Source: Treponema sp.
GTDB lineage: Bacteria > Spirochaetota > Spirochaetia > Treponematales > Breznakiellaceae
NCBI GenBank assembly: GCA_031288975.1
Contig: JAITQK010000066.1
Span: forward strand, 1-40,056
Reading direction: 5' to 3'
DNA length: 40,056 nt
The notes beneath the pieces were generated by a model that was not told the origin of the DNA, did not search any database, and saw only the letters and a list, made by a program, of their open reading frames with translations. The position numbers and the translations under genes were made by a program. This document shows positions 1 to 29,394 of the stretch, one piece after another. Numbering within the stretch: position 1 is the first letter of the stretch; each line of letters begins with the position of its first letter.

Positions 1-246
1 GGGTTTCTGTTGCCATGGTTTTCTCCTTACTCTCAGTCTACTCCACTTTCTCTCCGCCTGTCAAACCCCTGCAAAAAAGACGCGTGGTCTGGGTGAACAC
101 GTTCGCCACAAACCACACGCCTTCTCTGTGCGCTGCCATAATGGTACGCTTTGCTTTCTCAAATACCTAAGACAAAAAGGTGTTAGCCCTCGATACCGTT
201 TTTTTGTCTTTCGACAATAGGTTAAGCGGTATGGTAAAGGAAGATT

Positions 247-340
247 AACCACTAAGTTACACGAAGTTGCACAAAGTATTCCTTTCTCTAGTTTACGTTG
301 CGATACTTTGAGGTGTTTTTTCTTCTTAATCGGTTGTCAT
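247..340. repeat. Direct repeat copy A (~75-90 bp). Head 'aaccactaagttacacgaagttgcacaaagt', tail '...gatactttgaggtg...ttcttaatcggTTGTCAttg'
   Basis: 31/32-nt identical head plus a similar tail recur at 3644-3715. The tail alone recurs at 1406-1456. Contains a -35-like TTGTCA (334-339) 16 nt before TAAAAA (356-361). Confidence 0.7.
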
Positions 341-384
341 TGCTTTATGTACGGGTAAAAACACTTTATTGAGGCCTGTGGATG

Positions 385-1001
385 CCTCATTGTCTTCTGA
401 GAATAGGTCATTGTCTTCTGAGAATGGGTCATTGTCTTCTAACAATGGGTCATTGTCTTCTAAGAATGGGTCATTGTCTTCTAAGAATGGGTCATTGTCT
501 TCTGAGAATGGGTCATTGTCTTCTAAGAATGGGTCATTGTCTTCTAAGAATGGGTCATTGTCTTCTAAGAATGGGTCATTGTCTCCAGACAACGGGTCAT
601 TGTCTTCTGAGAATAGGTCATTGTCTTCTGAGAATAGGTCATTGTCTTGAGACAATAGGTCATTGTCTTTAGACAATAGGTCATTGTCTTTAGACAATGG
701 GTCATTGTCTCCAGACAATAGGTCATTGTCTCCAGACAATGGGTCATTGTCTTTAGACAACGGGTCATTGTCTTTAGACAACGGGTCATTGTCTTTAGAC
801 AATGGGTCATTGTCTTTAGACAACGGGTCATTGTCTCCAGACAATGGGTCATTGTCTTTAGACAACGGGTCATTGTCTTTAGACAACGGGTCATTGTCTT
901 TAGACAACGGGTCATTGTCTTTAGACAACGGGTCATTGTCTTGAGACAATAGGTCATTGTCTTGAGACAATAGGTCATTGTCTTGAGACAATAGGTCATC
1001 C
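385..1001. repeat. Tandem repeat array: 21-bp unit 'RggtcattgtctNNagaNaaY', about 29 head-to-tail copies, in two subfamilies
   Basis: Read directly. Copies 1-12 are 'gggtcattgtcttctRAGAAT'; copies 13-29 are 'gggtcattgtctttagacaaY / ccagacaat / tgagacaat'. No spacers. Stop-free in several frames on both strands: the table ORF 326..1024(-) reads the 7-aa repeat 'DNDPLSK', and ORF 382..672(+) reads 'GHCLLRM'. Confidence 0.9.
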
Positions 1002-1048
1002 ATAGGTGTAAATGGGGCATCCACAGGTGTAAATGAAGCATCCAGAGG
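1001..1048. repeat. Short tandem repeat, ~20-bp unit 'catccayaggtgtaaatgrrg' x ~2.3, abutting the 21-bp array
   Basis: Read directly: 'cataggtgtaaatggggcat ccacaggtgtaaatgaagcat ccagagg'. Confidence 0.5.
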
Positions 1049-1405
1049 CCAATATACGGCGTCTTAGCCCAGTATGAGCATAAGAATGTATGGGATGGGA
1101 GTATTGTTCGTCGTGTGCAGACTGGCCACATACAGGTCCGCCTATTACTCACGCACCTTACACACAAGAAGAAGACAGTCCGCGAATTACGCGAATTAAC
1201 GCGAATTAACGCCAAGCAATCTTGTCTTATTCGTGAAAATTAGTGTAATTCGTGGTCTCTTTTCTTCGTCTTTCGGCATCATGCGTACCATGCTGAAACG
1301 TTGACGGGCAGGTGGCATAGGCTATGATTAGGGTGAACGGTGGAGTTCTTCCTGAATGACACCGGGGAAGAAATCTAGGTCTTGAGACAATGGGTCATTA
1401 TCCTT

Positions 1406-1456
1406 CGACTTTGTGCTACTTTGTGGTTGATTTTGTTCTTAATCTGTTGACATTGA
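1406..1456. repeat. Third, partial copy of the A-repeat tail. It is preceded by an orphan 21-bp repeat unit at 1379-1404 and carries TTGACA at 1446-1451
   Basis: 'cgactttgtgctactttgtggttgattttgttcttaatctgTTGACAttg' matches 'cgatactttgaggtgttttttcttcttaatcggTTGTCAttg' at 301-342. Confidence 0.55.
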
Positions 1457-1569
1457 TAGTCTAACGGTAATGGATACCGTGATTAGGGGATGAGGCAAGG
1501 ACCTGCTCACATAACGCAAGTCCTCGTTCCTCATTCCCCCTAAAACACCCCGTCCTCAAAGCGCTGTTT

Positions 1570-1609
1570 CTTTACATAAAAAAGCTTGGGGGGCTATAAG
1601 CCCCCCAAG
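1570..1609 (-). terminator. Rho-independent terminator downstream of the caspase-FGE gene
   Basis: The minus strand reads 'gcttgggggg-cttatag-ccccccaagc' (10-bp GC stem, 6-nt loop) followed by 'ttttttatg'. It sits about 110 nt past the stop at 1718. Confidence 0.7.
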
Positions 1610-1717
1610 CCTCCCGCCTCATGTTTATATGCCGGCCCTCCCGTGCTGCTGCTCCATGCCCCCTGCCGTCCCGGCTTGGTGGGGGCATGTTGCCGCAGCT
1701 ACTGTGCTGGGCCTAAC

Positions 1718-3586
1718 TCATAAACCGGGGCGGGCTAGGCGGAAACCGAGGCTGTTGTACCGGAGAGACGGGGTGCTGCTGTTCCGTAACGCCGAGCGCA
1801 GGTACTGGCCGCTGTTGTTCCAGCCCCCGCCGCGTTCAACGCGGTACGTGCCCGAGGACGCGCCCAAGGGATCAGTCTGAGCGCCGCTCGAATAACTCCC
1901 ATACCAATCCCAGCACCACTCCCAGACATTGCCGTGTAGGTCGTACAAGCCCCACGCATTCGCCGCAAAACTACCCACCGGCGCAGTATTTACATACCCA
2001 TCCCGTATATTGACGATAGTCCAGTCAGGATTTCTTTCTTTTGCAGTTAGATCCGCTACATTCGCTTTCCCTGCCAGCGATTCCGCCGTGGACCCGCTAT
2101 TATACGCCGTCGTTGTTCCCGCACGGCAGGCGTATTCCCATTCAGCTTCAGTGGGCAACCGGTAGCCATTGGTGTTCCGGTTCCACGTTACATTAGTGCC
2201 AGACACCGTATACGCAGGCGTCAAGCCTTCCTTGCGGCTCCGGGCGTTGCAGTATTCCACCGCCTCAAACCAGCTTACCTGCTCTACCGGCAGGTTGTCG
2301 CCCTTGAAAGAGCTGGGATTCTTCCCCATAAGCGCCGCGTATTCCTTCTGCGTTACCTCGTACTTCCCCATATAGAAAGAACTCACCGTTACCCGATGCT
2401 GAGTTTCATCACTATCCCGCCCCGTCTCCGACGCCAGACTTCCCATCATAAACGTCCCGCCGTTGATCCGCACCATGTCGTTGGGGACATTCGGCACAGC
2501 GGCGACAGTCAGTACCGTTACCACCGGCGACTTCCCGCTCTCCTCACTCCCCCTCACTGTAGACACCCAGAAGTAATAGGTTGTCCCGCTTGCCATACCC
2601 GTTACGTCCATGGATGTTCCGGTTGCCAGATTCCCCAAGGTACTCGCACGGGCTGGATCATTCTGCGTGTTGTAATAGACCTTGTAATTCACCCCAGACC
2701 CTGCGCTGTCCCAGTTCAGCGTTACACGGTCCGTGCCCGAGGTTCCCGCCCGCACATTCCGGGGAGCCTGGGGAGCTTGGGGCGCCATTACCACCCGCGC
2801 TGGCGCTGGTTGTGGAGCAGGCGCTGGCTGGGGCGCGGTCTCGCCCAGATACACGCTTCCAAAGAACTGGTTGTACACGGCGGGGATCTGTTCCCGGTTG
2901 CTGGCACTGGATACATCAGCGCCGGTACGTCGGAACACTTCGCTTACCTCAAGCCCAGGTGTTCCCAGATGCTTGAGCAGTTGGCTGGTAAACAGACCGT
3001 TCCGTCCGGTGCCGTCTGCAGCGGTTTTCCCTGCGCTGGTGGCATATACCACGATGCTGTCCGCTGGCTGACTCCCTATCACCTGTAAACCCCTCGTCCC
3101 GGTCCTGCCCCAGCTAAAGGGATTGTCCCGACACGCATCCAGCACCACGATGTTGAGGGCGTTCCCCGCGGCGTTCAGTTCGTCCAGCACCGCCTGTACG
3201 TGCAGCGCCTTGGTACGAAGGAACGACTCAGCTTTGATGTCCGCGTACACCGGGATCAGGTAGTTCTGCCCATTGGACTGCACCCCATGCCCGGCATAGA
3301 AGAAAAAGCCGTAGGCGCTGTTACTGGCGCTCAGGCGGTTCTTCATGCGGATTACCGCGTTTTCCATACGGTCAAGGTTGCCGTCCAGCACTTTGTCCAC
3401 CTGAAACCCCAGCCGCTGTAGGGTTGTGGCTATATCATTGGCGTCATTCACCGGGTTATTGAGCCGGGTAACGCTGGTATATGCCGCGTTCCCGATAACC
3501 AGGGCATATTTCTGCTGCGCCGATAGCACCCAGAGGGGGAAACATGCCAGGGCCAGGAAAACCAAAAAAGTCTTGAGTGAAGTCAT
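1718..3586 (-). CDS. Secreted multidomain protein. Signal peptide, caspase-like (peptidase C14) domain, Pro/Ala-rich linker, fibronectin type III domain, and a C-terminal formylglycine-generating-enzyme (FGE)-sulfatase / SUMF1-type domain
   Basis: Start trimmed to the ATG at 3586, which has AAGGAG 7 nt upstream. N-terminus 'MTSLKTFLVFLALACFPLWVLSAQQ' is a signal peptide. Caspase His/Cys dyad motifs 'YAGHG' and 'LDACRDNP'. Linker 'APQPAPAPQPAPA'. FN3-like 'TLNWDSAGSGVNYKVYYN...YYFWVSTV'. FGE-sulfatase motifs 'RINGGTFMMGS', 'YEVTQKEY', 'GYRLPTEAEWEYACRAG', 'GNVWEWCWDWY', 'RGGGWN'. Confidence 0.8.
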   Translation of the reverse strand: MTSLKTFLVFLALACFPLWVLSAQQKYALVIGNAAYTSVTRLNNPVNDANDIATTLQRLGFQVDKVLDGNLDRMENAVIRMKNRLSASNSAYGFFFYAGHGVQSNGQNYLIPVYADIKAESFLRTKALHVQAVLDELNAAGNALNIVVLDACRDNPFSWGRTGTRGLQVIGSQPADSIVVYATSAGKTAADGTGRNGLFTSQLLKHLGTPGLEVSEVFRRTGADVSSASNREQIPAVYNQFFGSVYLGETAPQPAPAPQPAPARVVMAPQAPQAPRNVRAGTSGTDRVTLNWDSAGSGVNYKVYYNTQNDPARASTLGNLATGTSMDVTGMASGTTYYFWVSTVRGSEESGKSPVVTVLTVAAVPNVPNDMVRINGGTFMMGSLASETGRDSDETQHRVTVSSFYMGKYEVTQKEYAALMGKNPSSFKGDNLPVEQVSWFEAVEYCNARSRKEGLTPAYTVSGTNVTWNRNTNGYRLPTEAEWEYACRAGTTTAYNSGSTAESLAGKANVADLTAKERNPDWTIVNIRDGYVNTAPVGSFAANAWGLYDLHGNVWEWCWDWYGSYSSGAQTDPLGASSGTYRVERGGGWNNSGQYLRSALRNSSTPSLRYNSLGFRLARPGL

Positions 3587-3627: not shown

Positions 3628-3643
3628 CAATTCAGAAGAAGAA

Positions 3644-3715
3644 AACCACTAAGTTACACGAAGTCGCACAAAGTTTTTTTTTCCTTTGTGAAACTTAGTG
3701 ATACTTTGTGGTTTA
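3644..3715. repeat. Direct repeat copy A' ('aaccactaagttacacgaagtcgcacaaagt ... gatactttgtggt'), matching 247-340
   Basis: Side-by-side reading of both regions. Together the two copies bracket about 3.4 kb holding the tandem array and the caspase-FGE gene. Confidence 0.7.
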
Positions 3716-3831
3716 TTATTCGCTTTCAGAGTAAATGCCGCCGCCCTGCACCTTCCCCATGGTGGACTTGTCAAAGCTACGGACTTGGGGCACAATACCT
3801 GAAAAATCGAAAATACCCGAAAAGAGGAACC

Positions 3832-7491: not shown

Positions 7492-8157
7492 TTATTTGTC
7501 CAGAGCATAGAGGGTGTAGGTGTTTTTCTGATAGTCCAGCAGTCCTTCCCCTTTCATACGGGCAAGTTCCCTGGTCAGGGCGCTTCGGTCAACACCAAGA
7601 TAAGCTGCCAGATCCACTCTTCCCAGGGCAAGGGTAATGGTCGTGGTTCCCGCGGCCTGGGCTTCCTGGGACAAAAAGGTCAGGAGCTTCTCCCGAATCG
7701 ACTTCTTTGAACTGATATCCAGTTTCTCAATAAAGCGGATGTTTTTCAGTGCAATGAGGGTCACCATGTTTTCAATCATCCGCTGGTGAAAGGTACAGGT
7801 TTTTGAGCAGGACCGCAGCACCCGGTTGAAGGGGAGAAAGAGAATAGTCGAATCAGCGGCAGCCTGAAAGGACACATTTGCCGCAAAGGTCTGGCTGCAA
7901 ATAAAGGATTCGCCGAAAAGCTCTCCCTGGCGCAGCACCATGAGGATCGATTTCCCTCCCCAGAGGTCCTCTTTTATCATGTGTACACAACCGGTTTCTA
8001 TGACCCCGATACAACGCAGGGTATCCCCGGAAAGGGAAATAAAACTGCCCTTATCATAAACAGCGTGCCGGGCGCCCAGACAGGTCAATACCCCGTGCAG
8101 CTCGGATTCATTGATGTGTTCAAACAGGGGAAATCCGCGTAAGCGCAAAAGATTCAT
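7492..8157 (-). CDS. Crp/Fnr-family transcriptional regulator (cNMP-binding domain plus C-terminal HTH)
   Basis: C-terminal '[34 protein letters not shown]' HTH and an N-terminal cNMP-binding beta-roll. Its start overlaps the mnmG stop (ATGA). Confidence 0.8.
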
Positions 8158-10037
8158 GATTTCTTCACCAGTACCATGAGGAGGGCGATGTCCCCCTGGC
8201 GTACCCCTGGTATCCGGGCGGCCTGTCCCACGGTGAGGGGTTTGACCACCTGGAGCTTTTCCTTCGCCTCTGCTGAAAGGCCGGCGATGGCCCCATAGTC
8301 CAGAGCAGGGTCCAGCTTGACCGCATCCATCTTGGCGGTTCTGAGGGCTGCCCGCTGTTCCTTTTCAATGTACCCTGCGTACTTCACATCCAGCACTGCC
8401 CGCTCAAACCACTCCCTCGGGTACGCCCCTAATTCCGGGGCATAGGGGAAGATGTCCTCCACTCGTACTGTGGAATCCGTCAGGGTATGCTCCAGAGTAT
8501 CCCCTGTGTGGGGACCGAGGGCCGCTGCCGCCCTGGTCCGTTCCTGTTCTAGTCTGCCCGGAACCTTCCGGGTGCGGAGGAGTTCGACAATTCCCTCCAG
8601 GGTCTGGGTCTTCTTCTGAAACCGTTCCCAGCGCTGCTCATCCACAAGCCCCAGCGCCCGGGCCTTGGGACTGAGCCGGGTATCTGCCGTGTCATGGCGC
8701 AGCACCAGGCGGTGTTCAGCCCGGCTCGTGAACATCCGGTAGGGTTCCTTGGTTCCCAGGGTGGTGAGGTCATCCACCAGCACCCCGATGTACGCCTCGG
8801 CCCGGCCCAGGATCAGGGGCGGATCCCCTCGCAGCAGCAGGGCCGCGTTGATCCCCGCCATGATGCCCTGGGCTGCCGCTTCCTCATAGCCAGAACTGCC
8901 GTTGGTCTGGCCTGCCACAAACAGTCCGGCAAGGCGTTTGGATTCCAAGGTGGGGTAGAGGTCCAGGGGGTCCAGGTAATCGTACTCCACCGCGTAAGCA
9001 GGCCGCACGATCCGGGCCTTTTCCAGACCTGGTATACTGTGGATGAAATCCTCTTGCACATCTTCAGGCAGGGAACTGGAGGCCCCGTTGAGGTACATTT
9101 CATTGGTGGCGCATCCTTCAGGCTCGATGAAGAGGTGGTGATGGTCCCGTTCAGGGAATCGGACCACCTTATCCTCGATAGACGGACAGTACCGAGGCCC
9201 AACGCCCACGATTTTTCCGCCGTACAGGGGAGAGCGGTGGATATTTGCCCTGATGATTTCGTGGGTCTTGGGGGTGGTGCAGGTGATCCAGCAGGGAACC
9301 GAGGGGCGCTCCAGGGAGCTGTTCCGCTCCGGGGCGCCTTGGGGTTCCACGTCAAAGGAAAAGGGGACCGGAGCTTCCCCATCCTGCCGTTCCAGTTGGG
9401 AGTAATCAATAGAATCCCCGGCGATTCGGGCAGGGGTGCCGGTCTTGAGCCGTCCCACCGGGAAGCCCCGTGCTCTGAGGCGCGTTCCCAGCCCCAGAGC
9501 GGCCGTTTCTCCCAGCCGTCCCTGGGGAGCATCGTACTCACCGATGAAGACCTTCCCCTCCATGAACGTGCCGGTAGCCAGAATCACCGTTCGGGCGGCT
9601 ATACGGTGTCCCCGTTCGGTAAGGACCCCCAGAACCTGTCCTCCATCCTGATCCCCGGACACCATGAGGTCAACCACCGTATCCATGAACAGCGAAAGCC
9701 CTTGCTGTCCCTCCACAGCGGCACGAGCCGCTGCCTGGTAAGCCCACTTATCCGCCTGGGCACGGGGAGCCTGGACCGCAGGACCACGGGAGCGGTTGAG
9801 GACCCGGTACTGGATCATGGTCTTATCAATGAGCTTTCCCATTTCACCGCCCAGGGCATCCACTTCCCGGACCAGGTTCCCCTTGGAAAGGCCCCCCACT
9901 GCGGGATTGCAGGAGAGGGCGCCGATCCGGTCGGGGTTTTGGGTGATGAGCAGAATTCTGAAACCGAGCCGGGCAACCGCCAGGGATGCCTCGATGCCGG
10001 CATGTCCTCCGCCTACTACAATACAGTCATAATCCAT
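8154..10037 (-). CDS. mnmG: tRNA uridine-5-carboxymethylaminomethyl modification enzyme MnmG (GidA)
   Basis: '[24 protein letters not shown]' FAD-binding N-terminus and conserved '[21 protein letters not shown]'. Start trimmed to 'MDYDC...' (table ORF 10118 minus 27 codons). Confidence 0.9.
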
Positions 10038-10111
10038 GCTTTCTATAATACCGCATCGTAGCATCGTTACCACAAGCCCCGTAAATTTTTTTCTATTTTT
10101 GCAAATTTTTA

Positions 10112-10159
10112 TTGACATATTGTACTAGTTCATATACATTTGTATTAGATGAATAGTAC
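10112..10159 (+). promoter_or_regulatory. Promoter TTGACA-17-TACATT with a ~38-bp near-palindrome 'gtactagTTCATaTACAtttgTATtagATGAAtagtac' overlapping the -10 and the ATG of the YtrA/GntR gene. Leaderless start and putative autoregulatory operator
   Basis: Read directly. The palindrome arms 'gtacta...tagtac', 'ttcat...atgaa' and 'ataca..tgtat' enclose the start codon at 10149. No SD sequence precedes the ATG. Confidence 0.55.
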
Positions 10160-19094: not shown

Positions 19095-20096
19095 ATGATT
19101 AGATACAAGATTGCAGAGTTTGCGTTTCGTTTAGGGATTTTCGCTGCCACTGTTCGTCGTTGGGAGCGCGCAGGAAATTTACTATATGCAGCTATGCAGG
19201 CTTATGGTTACACACGTATACAAAACTTGAACCGAGCGCATAAGGTTGAGTTTATACTCAACAACGAACAGCGCACGCTTCTCAACAAACACTTTGGTTC
19301 AGCTCTTAACGCTCACGTTACCTCTTGTGAAGTAATCCGCCACTTTGGTACCTCTTTTAAATCGTTCTTCACAGGAAAGACCAAGCACCCCCGCTTTCAC
19401 ACTAAAAAATCCGGTGTCGAAGACAATCGCTCTGTTGAGAACCAAGACGAGGTGATTGGCATAGACCTTGGGATAAAAGAAATGGCTACTTGTTCGGATG
19501 GACCTGTGATAGAAAATCCCAGAATAAGTAATCGATTTGCTTCTCAACTTCGCCGCTATAATAAACGCCTTGCACAGCGTACACAGGGTTCACACCGTTG
19601 GTGGAGGACCGTATATGCCCTGCGAGAGCTACATTATAGCATCGCCTGTTGCCGTAACGGCTACATCCATAAGTTCACTCCTGCTTTCACCGGACAATAC
19701 GGTGTTATAGGTTCAGAGGACTTGAACGTACAAGGCATGGCTCAAAACCATCACCTTGCTCGTTCAATCTTGGATGTATCTTTTTACGAGATTGGTAGGC
19801 AGTTGAGTTACAAAGCAAAAGAACTGCGTTTGGTTGGGCATTTCGCTCCATCTTCAAAGACGTGCAGTTCCTGTGGTCATGTTAAGCATGATTTAACACT
19901 CAAGGATCGTATTTACGTCTGTCCTGATTGTGGCCTAGCAATAGACCGTGATTTGAACGGGGCGATAAATATTTCCCGGTGGGCTACACCGGTTCCGGAC
20001 GTGGACAAGAAAGCTCTGGTCTGTGATACGATTAGCGTCGTATCACGTGGGAAACTATGCTTGGATGAAGCGTCAAGTGGACTTCAATGTGCGTAA
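19095..20096 (+). mobile_element. tnpB: IS607/IS605-family remnant: a single ORF in which an IS607 TnpA MerR-type HTH N-terminus is fused in frame to a shortened TnpB (OrfB) with intact RuvC-I/II/III and zinc-finger motifs
   Basis: 'KIAEFAFRLGIFAATVRRWERAGNL...GYTRI' resembles the MerR HTH and GHRRY box of IS607 serine-recombinase TnpA. TnpB N-terminal motif 'VEFILNNEQRTLLNKHFG'. RuvC-I 'IGIDLGIK'. RuvC-II 'GSEDLNVQGM'. Zn finger 'CSSCGHV...CPDCG'. RuvC-III 'DRDLNGAINI'. The sequence is AT-rich relative to its neighbours. The TnpA catalytic domain and part of the TnpB middle are missing. Confidence 0.75.
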
Positions 20097-23861: not shown

Positions 23862-23873
23862 CCATTCACTACG

Positions 23874-24221
23874 TTGGAGGTGGCGGGAGTCGAACCCGCG
23901 TCCTAATACGCGAAATACACGCCTCTACAGGTTTATCCGTACATTACATTGTCGGGACGGGCTTAACTGCACGGCATGTGGCCCATCCGTATTCCGGAGT
24001 TGTCTCGTCGCCCCCCGTCCGGAAACAGAGCTTGACCAGCCTTGATTGCGACGGAAATTCGGCTCCTCAAGGCGGCGGAGCCGGTTCCCGCGCTCTACTG
24101 CTTACGCAGCGAGAGCGTAACTGTCATAGTCGGCAGTTAAATTGTTGCCGAATGTTAGGAGATCGGCACTCCACCTGCAGCCTGCACCCCGAATCGTACC
24201 AGTCGAAACCGGTGCACCCCC
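23874..24221 (-). ncRNA. ssrA: tmRNA (ssrA), ~348 nt
   Basis: Minus strand 5' 'GGGGGTGCACCGGTTTCGACTGG...' and 3' tRNA-like '...GGACGCGGGTTCGACTCCCGCCACCTCCA'. The acceptor stem GGGGGTG/CACCTCC pairs. Internal tag ORF '...GCC GAC TAT GAC AGT TAC GCT CTC GCT GCG TAA' reads (GNNLT)ADYDSYALAA*, ending in the canonical ALAA. CCA is not encoded. Confidence 0.85.
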
Positions 24222-26885: not shown

Positions 26886-28235
26886 CTACTTCCCTTCCTC
26901 CAAGGTGGCTAGTTTCCGTTGCAGGGTTTTGCGGCCGATGCCAAGTACCGCAGCGGTCCTGCTCTTATTCCCCTTGAGCATGGACAAGGTATCCCGTAGG
27001 ATGATCTGCTCTCCTTCCGCCAGGGTGGCGCCCAGGGGGATGCGTATCCAACCCTCCTCGTGCTGGGTCCGCAGGGTGGGGGGTAGGTCCGCCTCGGTGA
27101 TGACCTGCCCCTTGGCCATGACCACGGCGCTTTCCATGCAGTTCCGCAGTTCCCGGACGTTGCCGGGCCAGTCGTAGGCATACAGGGCAGCACGGGCCTT
27201 GTCATCGATGCTGTCCACGGGCTTGCTGTTTTCCTGGGCAAACTCCTTTAAAAACGAGGTGATGAGCAGCGGGAGGTCATCTTTCCGTTCCCGCAAGGGG
27301 GGGACGAGGATACTCACGACGTTGAGCCGAAAATAGAGATCCTCCCGGAAATTCCCCTGCTCTATCTCCGCTTTTAAGTCCTTGTTCGTAGCCGCCACTA
27401 TCCGCACGTCGGTCTCTATGGATTCTTCCCCACCCACCCGCTCGAAGCGCTTTTCCTGGAGGACCCGCAGGAGTTTTATTTGGAGGTTCTGGTCGATTTC
27501 CCCGATTTCATCCAGGAACAGGGTTCCCTCGTGGGCAAGCTCAAAGCGGCCCCGCTTCCGGCTGGTGGCGCCGGTAAAGCTGCCTTTCTCATGGCCAAAA
27601 AGTTCACTTTCCAGGAGGCTGGCGGCCAGGGCTGCGCAGTGGACTTTGATGAGGGGTTTGCCCTTGCGGGGGGACAGCTCATGCAAGGCATCGGCCACCA
27701 GTTCTTTGCCTACGCCGGATTCACCGGTGATGAGGACTGAGGCTTTGGCGGGGGCCACACGACTGATAGTGTCAAAGACGCGGCGCATGGGTGCGCTGGT
27801 GCCGATGATGGTTTCAAAGGGTTTGTGCTTGGCAAGTTCCTCTTCCATGCGGCGGTGCTGCAGTTCCAGCTCCCGGCTCTTGAGTGCCCGCTTCACCAAG
27901 AGGGAGAGACGGTCCAGGTTGAGGGGTTTGGTGAGGAAATCGTAGGCCCCCTGGCGCATAGCTTCTACGGCGGTCTCCACGGTACCGTGGCCGGTGAGGA
28001 CGATGACAGGGATGCCCGGGGTTTCGGCGTTGATGCGTTTGAGCAGCTCGGTACCGTTAAGCCCGGTCATGCGAAGGTCGGTGATGACTAGGTCAATGTC
28101 CCCTTTCTGAAAGCGTTTCCACGCGGCGTCTCCAGCGGCTGCGGTTTCCACGGTGTAGCCGTCCAGTTCCAGGGCGGCAGCGAGTCCTTCCCTGATGTTC
28201 TTTTCATCATCTACCACGAGGAGTTTAATGCCCAT
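26886..28235 (-). CDS. Sigma-54-dependent response regulator (NtrC family: REC, AAA+ sigma54-activator domain, Fis-type HTH)
   Basis: Start trimmed to 'MGIKLLVVDDE' (GGAGG RBS). Motifs 'GESGVGKELVADALHE', 'GAFTGA', 'ELFGHEKGSFTGA'. C-terminal 'RTAAVLGIGRKTLQRKL'. Confidence 0.9.
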   Translation of the reverse strand: MGIKLLVVDDEKNIREGLAAALELDGYTVETAAAGDAAWKRFQKGDIDLVITDLRMTGLNGTELLKRINAETPGIPVIVLTGHGTVETAVEAMRQGAYDFLTKPLNLDRLSLLVKRALKSRELELQHRRMEEELAKHKPFETIIGTSAPMRRVFDTISRVAPAKASVLITGESGVGKELVADALHELSPRKGKPLIKVHCAALAASLLESELFGHEKGSFTGATSRKRGRFELAHEGTLFLDEIGEIDQNLQIKLLRVLQEKRFERVGGEESIETDVRIVAATNKDLKAEIEQGNFREDLYFRLNVVSILVPPLRERKDDLPLLITSFLKEFAQENSKPVDSIDDKARAALYAYDWPGNVRELRNCMESAVVMAKGQVITEADLPPTLRTQHEEGWIRIPLGATLAEGEQIILRDTLSMLKGNKSRTAAVLGIGRKTLQRKLATLEEGK

Positions 28236-29394
28236 GGGGGCCTCCGTAGCTGATAAGGCGCCGTTCTTTCTGGGGGATGGGCAGGAGGATGCGGAAGCAG
28301 GCACCGGTTCCTTCCCGGGATTTCACGGTGATTTCCCCCTGGTGTTCCCGGATGATCTTGTAGACCAGGGTGAGGCCGAGGCCTGAACCGGTTTCAGTGG
28401 TGGTAAAATACGGCTCGAATATTTTGGACAGGTGGGCTTCAGGGATGCCTGAGCCAGTATCGGTGATGCTGATGCTGAGGGTGGTGTCCTGGGCTTCGGT
28501 TTTGATGTTCAGGGCGCCGCCTTGGGGCATGGCAGTGATGGCGTTTTTGATGAGGTTGAGGAGGGCTTGTTTCATGCACCGTTCATCAAACTCGATGAGG
28601 GGGAGCTGTGCTGCCAGGTCCAGAGTGCAGATGATGTGGGCTGCTTCCAGCTCGAAAGAGACAAAGCCGACGAGTTCCTCTATCAGGGTGTTGAGGTTCC
28701 CTTCATGGAGGTCCATGTTCATGGGCCGGACGGCAAAGAGGAAATCCACCACGATGTGGTTGAGGCGGTCGATTTCTTCGTTCACCACGCCGAGGTAGGT
28801 GTCCAGGATGGCGTGCCCTGGTCCTTGGGCGGCCAGGGTTTTCTGAATCAACTGGATGTGGATGGACAGAGAACCCAGGGGATTCTTGATTTCATGGGCT
28901 ACGCCGGCGGCGAGGGTGGTGAGACTGGCCAGGCTTTCCATGCGCCGCAACTGAGCTGCTTTGCTTCGTTTTTCGGTGATATCTTCGATATAGATGAGGG
29001 ACCCTGAGACCTGGTGGTCCCGGACCAGGGGCAGGACACTGATGCTCAGGAGTCGTTCGATACCCTTTACCTCCACGGCAAACTCCCGGTCTTCGACGCG
29101 GTCGCCGGTGAGGAGGGTGGTTTCAAGAAAGGCTGCTACCCCTTCTTCCCGAACCACAGACCAGAGGGGTTCATCCCCCTGGTCATAGTGGGTGATGGGG
29201 AAGAAACGTTCGGCGTATTTATTGGCCAGGACGAGGTTATGATTCGGGTCGCACACGAGTATCCCCTGGGCCAGGGAATCCAACACGGTTTCCAGGCGGT
29301 CTATTTCAGTGGCCGCTGAGATGAGGAGGTCCTGGGTCTGTTCCGCCGTCATCTTGGGGAGTTTTTTTAAGGCCCGTTTGATAAAGTCTCGCAT
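28225..29394 (-). CDS. Sensor histidine kinase (PAS, HisKA, HATPase_c; no TM, so cytoplasmic)
   Basis: H-box 'LAAGVAHEIKNPL'. N/G boxes 'LLNLIKNAI', 'DTGSGIP', 'GSGLGLT'. Overlaps the response-regulator start by 11 nt. Confidence 0.85.
   Translation of the reverse strand: MRDFIKRALKKLPKMTAEQTQDLLISAATEIDRLETVLDSLAQGILVCDPNHNLVLANKYAERFFPITHYDQGDEPLWSVVREEGVAAFLETTLLTGDRVEDREFAVEVKGIERLLSISVLPLVRDHQVSGSLIYIEDITEKRSKAAQLRRMESLASLTTLAAGVAHEIKNPLGSLSIHIQLIQKTLAAQGPGHAILDTYLGVVNEEIDRLNHIVVDFLFAVRPMNMDLHEGNLNTLIEELVGFVSFELEAAHIICTLDLAAQLPLIEFDERCMKQALLNLIKNAITAMPQGGALNIKTEAQDTTLSISITDTGSGIPEAHLSKIFEPYFTTTETGSGLGLTLVYKIIREHQGEITVKSREGTGACFRILLPIPQKERRLISYGGPHGH

Follow-up and report, generated by a model that had tools for sequence, protein, structure and literature searches.

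The DNA analysed here, which we call the window, comprises positions 1 to 40,056 of contig JAITQK010000066.1 from a Treponema sp. assembly (GCA_031288975.1), and the element in question is a tandem array of 21-bp units near its left end. Read along the minus strand, this end carries a caspase/FN3/FGE-sulfatase gene (3586 to 1718), a terminator-like hairpin (1606 to 1588), an orphan repeat unit, the array, a second orphan unit, a sigma-70-like promoter (64 to 35), and a gene that starts at position 16. This last gene runs off the window after five codons (MATET), for which no assignment was possible. An earlier reading of the sequence, hereafter the original prediction, had described a 29-copy array with two unit subfamilies and had proposed that either strand might encode a repeat protein.

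Anatomy of the array and conservation of its dyad

The main array occupies 385 to 993, with no strand assigned, and consists of 29 head-to-tail units of 21 bp without gaps or indels when the register is taken from 385 (unit pattern GGTCATTGTCT NNNN A N AA NN). Tandem Repeats Finder (TRF) reported 387-999 with a period of 21, 29.2 copies, 93% matches, 0% indels, and a score of 792, and the core pattern, with up to two mismatches allowed, occurred 42 times, all within 387-994, against 0.04 expected from shuffles. The 29 uninterrupted copies of the original prediction are thereby confirmed. Unit positions 3-11 (TCATTGTCT) are invariant in 29 of 29 units, and variation is confined to positions 12-15, 17, 20, and 21. 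The unit is laid out as GGTCA, TTGTCT-NN-AGACAA, and YR, which gives a 14-bp palindrome of the form 6+2+6 followed, in each type-B unit, by the 7-bp spacer YRGGTCA. Neither this palindrome nor the tail of the array, about three degenerate 21-bp units at 994 to ~1056 (GGKCATCCAYAGGTGTAAATG; TRF row 990-1048) that keep GGTCAT..AATG and have lost the dyad, had been noticed earlier.

Two unit types are present, as the original prediction had it, though its division into copies 1-12 and 13-29 was inexact. Block A (385-636, no strand) holds units 1-12, of which eleven (units 1-9 and 11-12) are of type A (TCTTCTRAGAAT; unit 3 has the variant AACAAT), with the derived form TTGTCT-TC-TRAGAA and a broken dyad. 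Unit 10 (574-594), inside block A, is an intact type B (TCT-NN-AGACAAYR), as are all units of block B (units 13-29, 637-993, no strand), where the palindrome TTGTCT-NN-AGACAA has the centre TT, CC, or TG. The 14-bp palindrome is thus intact in units 10 and 13-29 and lost in units 1-9 and 11-12, given that the right-arm substitutions of type A disrupt two of the six pairs. Type B is common to other genomes, and type A was found in none of 22 related loci, which suggests that type B was inherited and that type A is derived and specific to the window; the two ancestral units that had been postulated are better read as one ancestral type with a local offshoot. Beyond the array, the orphan unit reported at 1379-1404 (GTCTTGAGACAATGGGTCATTATCC) is present, and we found a second orphan at 204-222 (TTGTCTTTCGACAATAGGT).

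Related arrays, cited below by locus labels such as L001, were found in several collections. A scan of one genome per species with the exact pattern gave six loci, all in Treponema metagenome-assembled genomes (MAGs) and four of them on separate contigs of one MAG; a metagenome scan gave five further contigs with the array, and a protein search with look-ups gave two further array loci. The window-type arrays L001-L013 share the period of 21 and the core CATTGTCT-NN-AGACAAC. Their centre dinucleotide differs from locus to locus (TT, AA, TG, CA, TA, AT, CC, or AC), and the spacer varies as well, with CAGGT, CGGGT, CGAGG, and CGGAG among its forms. L011 shares one identical unit with the window, and two pairs of loci are identical throughout the array (L008 and L011; L015 and L016). 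Dispersal amounts to at least four arrays on separate contigs of one MAG and to one array in the 40-kb window, where REP-like palindromes would be expected in tens to hundreds of copies per genome. Among the collections searched, the repeat family appears to be restricted to termite-gut Treponema. Termite-gut treponemes are mostly uncultured, and the literature searched on their interspersed repeats held no description of these repeats or of any such family; to that extent, the family is previously undescribed. Viral contigs and plasmids yielded no array matches, and a phage or plasmid origin was rejected for that reason.

The conserved feature of these arrays is the dyad, whose arms evolve by compensatory changes. 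In a covariation analysis of 95 distinct units, 95.8% of arm cells were paired, compared to 34-65% in slid controls. Changes on both sides were seen in four of the six arm pairs and amounted to 21 cells, compared to 1.5 in shuffles, and none of 500 shuffles reached as high a value. Compensated arms are found in L013 (TTATCT/AGATAA), L014 (TTGTCC/GGACAA), L015 (TTCGCT/AGCGAA), and L004 (TAGTCT/AGACTG), in the last case beside one uncompensated intermediate unit. The window array amounts to a string of 6-8-bp arms in alternating orientation. When folded as a single strand, block B reached z values of -9 on the plus strand and -13.7 on the minus strand relative to shuffled controls. Block A, with a z of about -1, folded no better than shuffles, and the upkeep of palindrome pairing fails there.

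Coding potential, genomic contexts, and a partner gene family

The two open frames on which the proposal of a repeat protein rested are both present, a 96-aa open reading frame (ORF) with the peptide (GHCLLRM)n at 382-672 on the plus strand and a 232-aa ORF with (DNDPLSK)n at 326-1024 on the minus strand. We judged the first not to be a gene and the second to be a by-product of the repeat. The plus-strand frame is closed by TAG in each TT-centred type-B unit. Its proposed upstream module consists of a GAGG, the ATG at 382, and the pair TTGTCA-16-TAAAAA, and all three are there. However, the pair (334-361, plus strand, pointing into the array; TTGTCA at 334-339, a 16-nt spacer, and TAAAAA at 356-361) is only weakly promoter-like and failed our promoter scan because the second hexamer lacks its final T, and the GAGG (371-374) and ATG both lie inside a hairpin (370-389, plus strand; TGAGGC-N8-GCCTCA, 6-bp stem) that abuts unit 1. 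The 232-aa ORF is almost wholly made of repeats and lacks a Shine-Dalgarno sequence.

Comparison between loci, with frames defined relative to the palindrome, gave no reading frame that is open across all homologous arrays, which come from 12 other loci of termite-gut Treponema. The DNDPLSK frame has no stop in the window or in L003, one each in L005 and L006, eight in L001 (which has 8 units), eight in L002, and 15 in L004. In L001 and L004, each unit carries a stop on both strands, given that the centre TA creates TAA. Within the window, the variable unit positions fall in this frame at three third, three second, and one first codon position, with no enrichment of third positions. In nine gene-linked arrays, 28% of unit variants were synonymous in the frame of the downstream gene (60:152, synonymous to non-synonymous), compared to 20% (43:169) and 33% (71:141) in the other two frames, so that there is no synonymous excess. 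Homologues with annotation or with non-repeat domains were likewise missing. For the 232-aa ORF, a search among 5.8 billion proteins returned only four matches, all of them calls across such arrays; two come from contigs whose DNA shows the homologous array, and look-ups identified the remaining two as calls of this kind. The 232-aa ORF did match the Pfam model LbR_Ice_bind with 36 bits. We rejected this match as an artefact of heptad periodicity, given that the same DNA read in other frames hits coiled-coil models, namely, those of Cep57 (Cep57_CLD_2), bZIP, and ZapB, and that in L006 the homologous ORF reached only 13 bits. A repeat protein on either strand is not supported by these results, and the array is most likely a non-coding palindrome array and not a repeat-protein gene.

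The array lies between called ORFs or genes at each of the 20 distinct loci whose array was read as DNA, as it does in the window, and no array interrupts a gene. Solo arrays stand between convergent genes in L001, L002, and L008/L011; in L002, one side is the 3' end of a Ddl gene, recognised from its C-terminal sequence, and in L008/L011, the array fills the gap between two stop codons. Solo arrays between same-strand genes are those of the window, L005, L012, and L013. The suggestion that slippage changes array length found support in a related array family at another locus: L017 and L018 represent a single locus from two metagenomes, and their arrays differ in length by exactly one 21-bp unit, with almost identical flanks and with more substitutions within the array than in the flanks.

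A second group of loci links the arrays to one gene family. The arrays of L003 (where the gene is a pseudogene), L006, L009, and L010 stand just upstream of a gene of about 217 aa whose product begins M-x(1-5)-DW(M/L)PG. This family gave 242 matches in a word-indexed search and 3,575 representatives at 50% identity in a profile search, and all named members are "hypothetical protein" from Treponema. No Pfam or PHROG model matched it. Its structure model (predicted local distance difference test score, 87.5) shows three long helices and an FN3-like sandwich, and only FN3 structures match. Family proteins are P0005-P0124 and P0245-P0392, and the array loci read for the family are L006, L009, L010, and L014-L021. 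Six further family loci, represented by eight records because two loci were each sampled twice, carry a 21-bp-period array of 8-14 units that ends 16-71 nt before the start codon and is followed by a strong Shine-Dalgarno sequence. The units are of the TTGTCCACGGACAA type in L014, ACCCAGCCGCTACAGCGAATG in L015/L016, GGGGGACACCCCGCAAGTCTC in L017/L018, CATGGCGCATGGGTCAGAGAA in L019, TTCCGCGAGACGGAGAAATGT in L020, and CTCCCGTTCATTCGGAGAGTA in L021, and each contains a small dyad, for which local hairpins of -5 to -11 kcal per unit were predicted. Altogether, 10 of 10 DNA loci of the family have a dyad array with a 21-bp period whose end lies 16-100 nt before the start codon, with wholly different unit sequences, in a family whose members diverge down to 38% identity (alignment A1). 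Four further, more distant members have heptad-repeat N-terminal extensions in their called proteins, which indicates that further 21-nt arrays are probably being read through there.

The spacing at these loci bears on whether the arrays are transcribed. In L015, a gene on the same strand lies upstream, the array begins 2 nt past its stop codon, and 20 nt separate the end of the array from the next ATG, so that the array must be transcribed there. In L009, L010, L017, and L019, only 16-36 nt, Shine-Dalgarno sequence included, separate the array from the ATG. An in-frame stop lies between array and gene at six family loci. The order in L010, an FGE-sulfatase-domain gene, the array, and the FN3-family gene, parallels the order in the window. 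The last or an orphan unit provides the -35-like hexamer of the best promoter-like site before the gene in L009 and L006. Turnover of the unit sequence is illustrated by P0015 and P0031, whose N-terminal halves are near-identical and whose arrays are of the TTGTCC-AC-GGACAA and CATGGCGCATG types. We considered autoregulation by the adjacent protein and rejected it, given that N-terminal similarity does not track unit sequence and that the fold is a helical bundle with FN3. A perfect sigma-54 consensus, TGGCACGGTTCTTGCA, lies at 290-305 of L020, 47 nt upstream of the array before the FN3-family gene; since this perfect match was seen in L020 only, sigma-54 promoters were rejected as a general feature before arrays.

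Proposed role of the arrays and competing explanations

The arrays are non-coding, dyad-constrained, dispersed, intergenic, variable in unit number, and, at several loci, necessarily transcribed. The puzzle they pose is that an array of variable copy number and a period of two helical turns has been retained before the ribosome-binding site by a gene family of thousands of members, while the sequence of that array turns over completely. We consider it likely, with a probability of about 0.65, that the element is a non-coding minisatellite of short palindromic units acting as a cis element akin to repetitive extragenic palindromes (REP sequences) and bacterial interspersed mosaic elements (BIMEs) or to the mycobacterial interspersed repetitive units (MIRUs). 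Arrays of this kind would grow and shrink by slipped-strand mispairing or unequal exchange, favoured by their hairpin-prone units. Those within transcription units, whether between cistrons or between promoter and ribosome-binding site, would act in cis as a block of stem-loops or as one long fold-back, and such a block could tune how stable the flanking message is and how it is processed or translated, as REP and BIME sequences do in enterobacteria. Copy number might then serve as an adjustable dial. If the array does tune expression, it would represent a regulatory principle set by architecture and not by sequence.

REP and BIME sequences are known to stabilise mRNA and to bind proteins such as IHF, gyrase, and Pol I (PMC3184786). 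Like the Treponema arrays, they are extragenic, short imperfect palindromes that form stem-loops, are dispersed and often clustered, and lie between convergent genes or cistrons. The Treponema units are, however, 21 bp long with 6-bp arms, whereas REP sequences are GC rich and about 35 bp; they stand strictly head to tail in up to 29 copies with an exact period, whereas BIME pairs alternate in orientation and are joined by linker motifs. They also lack a GTAG-type 5' motif and belong to a spirochaete lineage. None of the 28 largest window ORFs scanned against Pfam was a REP-associated tyrosine (RAYT/Y1) transposase of the IS200/IS605 TnpA-like kind, the only transposase-like hit being the TnpB at 19095-20096. 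MIRUs are the variable-number tandem repeats (VNTRs) interspersed in mycobacterial genomes; their units measure 40-100 bp and do not have a short palindrome as their basis. Both they and the Treponema arrays are tandem-repeat loci scattered in chromosomal intergenic regions, often inside operons, that vary in copy number by whole units, and both have small ORFs running through the repeats and abutting flanking genes. MIRUs show neither the conserved pairing with a single gene family nor the exact period of two turns.

Plasmid iterons are 19-22 bp long, and the sopC centromere of F consists of 43-bp repeats with an internal inverted repeat. Like the Treponema arrays, these elements are direct repeats that have a phasing of about two helical turns and in some cases a dyad per unit and that lie directly upstream of a gene, and phasing at about 10.5 x n bp is indeed found in all arrays read as DNA, the period being 21 bp throughout. 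In contrast to iterons and centromeres, the Treponema arrays are chromosomal, occupy several loci per genome, are not conserved in sequence between close relatives, and have no plasmid or phage matches; a Pfam scan showed no Rep or Par gene in the window. Iterons and operators keep a conserved site beside its cognate binder, whereas P0015 and P0031 stand beside unrelated units and the neighbouring protein is a helical bundle with FN3. In the BOX elements of Streptococcus pneumoniae, the boxB module is repeated in tandem (PMC3184786). They, too, are intergenic, with a variable internal tandem module and a stable predicted secondary structure, and can affect neighbouring expression. BOX elements have the terminal modules boxA and boxC and a 45-bp boxB, whereas the Treponema arrays have no conserved end modules and flanks that differ between loci. 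What sets the arrays apart from REP/BIME sequences, MIRUs, and BOX elements is the short unit, the exact head-to-tail 21-bp period, the lack of end modules and of a known transposase, and conservation of architecture alone before one gene family.

Several observations weigh against a cis element of this kind, above all one that acts as RNA. Of 10 gene-linked arrays, four were predicted to fold more stably as the sense strand and three as the antisense strand, and the remaining three were near ties, among which L017 and L018 (one locus sampled twice) are counted. The asymmetric spacer also flips with respect to the gene downstream of it, being plus in L009 and L010 and minus in L003 and L006. 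Neither the inconsistent strand energies nor the flipped spacer would be expected of a sense-RNA element. An excess of G.T over A.C mismatches (42 versus 13 cells) is mostly due to one recurrent variant (AGACAG) and does not count as independent evidence, and for these reasons an assignment of strand by G.U wobble and folding energy was rejected. The strict 21-bp period, which is two helical turns, persists despite full sequence turnover and would more naturally reflect a constraint at the DNA level. Compensation within a palindrome can also arise mutationally, through hairpin-templated correction without selection. Finally, the window array itself lies outside any obvious transcription unit, with the terminator at 1588-1606 on one side and the promoter at 35-64 on the other. 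Given this location and the dyad-less block A, which makes up the left 40% of the array, the window copy is probably a solo, detached, or half-decayed member that is drifting and not fully functional. No FN3-family gene is detectable beside it, and neither tblastn nor a profile hidden Markov model run on six-frame translations found a remnant of one in window positions 1-1800.

Weighing these points, we consider a cis element working at the level of nucleic acid, as RNA or as DNA, the most likely explanation, followed by a phased array of protein-binding sites, a neutral minisatellite, and a translated repeat, in that order. A phased array on double-stranded DNA, in which each palindrome would be a dimer site and the 21-bp spacing would put the dimers on one face of the helix, might form a nucleoprotein filament that silences, blocks, or activates a neighbouring promoter or gene, in the manner of iteron, centromere, and tandem-operator arrays. 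The period of exactly 21 bp in all DNA arrays examined, even with unrelated units, fits this idea, as do the 6-bp dyad arms around a free 2-bp centre, the lack of strand preference in folding energy and orientation, the heptad extensions of four further family proteins, which would fit a 21-bp period, and the -35-like hexamer that a unit supplies in L009 and L006. We nevertheless regard it as unlikely. One sequence-specific binder could not serve all arrays when the unit sequence turns over completely between relatives as close as P0015 and P0031, and the adjacent protein, whose model does not resemble a DNA binder, does not track the array in sequence. At several loci, the array is situated between convergent gene ends and has no promoter to control, plasmid and phage relatives are lacking, and no single palindrome copies occur elsewhere in the 40-kb window, which leaves no sign of a regulon; an operator of a regulon was rejected on the same ground. 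A neutral or selfish minisatellite, expanded by slippage, corrected by hairpin templating, and linked to genes through co-copying, would account for the fast change in sequence and copy number, for arrays in all kinds of intergenic context, for the absence of strand bias, and for the expansion of block A to 11 copies despite loss of the dyad. It is a less probable explanation still, given that a period-21 dyad array precedes the gene at 10 of 10 DNA loci of a family so diverged, always ending within the same 16-100 nt, with heptad extensions in four more members; such divergence should often have brought loss of the array or a change of period.

Translation of the repeat, either as a stand-alone heptad protein, (DNDPLSK)n on the minus or (GHCLLRM)n on the plus strand, or as an upstream ORF that needs only upkeep of its frame, appears very improbable. 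In its favour, none of the 29 units interrupts the minus-strand frame, all periods are divisible by three (21 nt, or seven codons, keep the frame under slippage), and the gene-linked arrays have only 0-2 stops in the frame of the downstream gene; in L015 and L019, only 3-12 nt lie between the end of that frame and the ATG, which would permit translational coupling. Gene callers have moreover extended five family members (P0098, P0271, P0308, P0350, and P0370) across the array. The stops in every unit of two arrays, the missing synonymous excess, the poor initiation signals, the artefactual Pfam matches, and the lack of database homologues other than array-spanning calls, all set out above, speak against translation, and solo arrays between convergent genes cannot serve as leader ORFs. 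Two further candidates were rejected. A CsrA-type sponge of GGA loops does not fit, as GGA is absent from the window units and is not conserved in the spacers, and a CRISPR array does not fit, as the units abut head to tail and the 7-bp "spacer" is itself repeated.

Returning to the cis element, a bolder proposal, which we offer tentatively and consider doubtful, is that the 21-nt dyad arrays form a new class of cis-regulatory leader, attached to the large family of three-helix and FN3 proteins, in which architecture (a period of 21, a hairpin per unit, and an end just before the ribosome-binding site) is conserved and sequence is not. Slippage would then set the expression of each paralogue as a heritable, reversible rheostat, which would differ from classical on/off phase variation, and solo arrays would be copies that have become detached or are decaying, or they would have other genes as their targets. 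The arrays also have practical consequences. Gene callers turn them into hypothetical "proteins" and false N-terminal extensions (P0001-P0004, P0098, P0271, P0350, and P0370), and they coincide with the ends of MAG contigs, given that L004, L007, and L009 begin in or at an array. They would also offer a VNTR marker system for strain typing in the termite-gut community.

Surroundings of the window array and other repeats

The gene beginning at 16 has a sigma-70-like promoter at 35-64 on the minus strand (TTGACA-18-TAGACT, 10 of 12 matches), which lies between that gene and the array. On the other side, the terminator-like hairpin with a T-run at 1588-1606 (minus strand) follows the caspase/FGE-sulfatase gene (1718-3586, minus strand) and places the array downstream of that transcription unit. 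Exact look-ups of two window proteins gave no match. The best homologue of the neighbouring gene has 77% identity, and homology of this gene places the window in the lineage of termite-gut Treponema/Breznakiellaceae. A syntenic Treponema MAG contig (L022) stops 100 nt past the FGE-sulfatase gene and gives no view of the gene to the left of the array. The array is flanked by two copies of a direct repeat with 79% identity, module B at 295-342 and module B' at 1408-1455 (both plus strand); the latter includes a TTGACA and adjoins the right orphan unit. Module B together with 247-286 forms an imperfect inverted repeat of CACNAAGT boxes.

A second repeat family in the window consists of 10-bp-phased CACNAAGTNN boxes, with seven matches compared to 0.13 expected, and occurs in no related locus. 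The sites are 250-277 (plus), 1408-1425 (minus), 3647-3674 (plus), and 3683-3710 (minus). Copies at 247-342 and 1408-1455 bracket the array, and the boxes at 3640-3722 form a hairpin with arms of about 28 nt in the divergent promoter region of the caspase/FGE-sulfatase and AMMECR1 genes. In sequence, these boxes look like regulatory palindromes.

Directly 3' of the stop codon of the caspase/FN3/FGE-sulfatase gene lies a GC-rich inverted repeat with 19-nt arms (1645-1699), which is conserved in L022 (6780-6840). Hairpins follow the variable regions in the target genes of diversity-generating retroelements, genes that in Treponema have an FGE-type C-lectin fold, and the inverted repeat resembles such hairpins; the window showed neither a reverse transcriptase nor a template repeat. 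Further toward the array, between the TTGACA-containing module upstream and the terminator at 1588-1606 downstream, a strong isolated hairpin (GGGGATGAGG...CCTCATTCCCC, 1484-1545) has predicted energies of -34 kcal on the plus strand and -43 kcal on the minus strand and might represent an attenuator or a small RNA. Between the array and the right orphan unit, at 1181-1212, a short repeat, CGCGAATTA(A), stands in three tandem copies and overlaps a terminator-like hairpin on the minus strand (1195-1179).

At the Rfam gathering threshold, the only match in the window was the transfer-messenger RNA (tmRNA), and matches at E values up to 1 were only generic long hairpins (miRNA precursors) far below threshold. 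The tmRNA gene (23872-24221, minus strand; tag peptide ADYDSYALAA) and gidA (8154-10118) show that the window is chromosomal. A sigma-54 activator is encoded at 26886-28304. The TnpB-like ORF mentioned above (19095-20096, plus strand, 333 aa) has OrfB_IS605 and Cas12f1-like TNB domains, and no Y1 transposase is adjacent to it among the scanned ORFs. The MAG contigs carry other long tandem repeats, namely, (CTGTGAT)x17 at 3476-3593 of L003, (GCAA)x20 at 4036-4114 of L015, a 20-bp repeat in four copies at 6601-6683 of L005, and a 23-bp repeat in seven copies at 1298-1453 of L006, and these genomes seem unusually rich in micro- and minisatellites.

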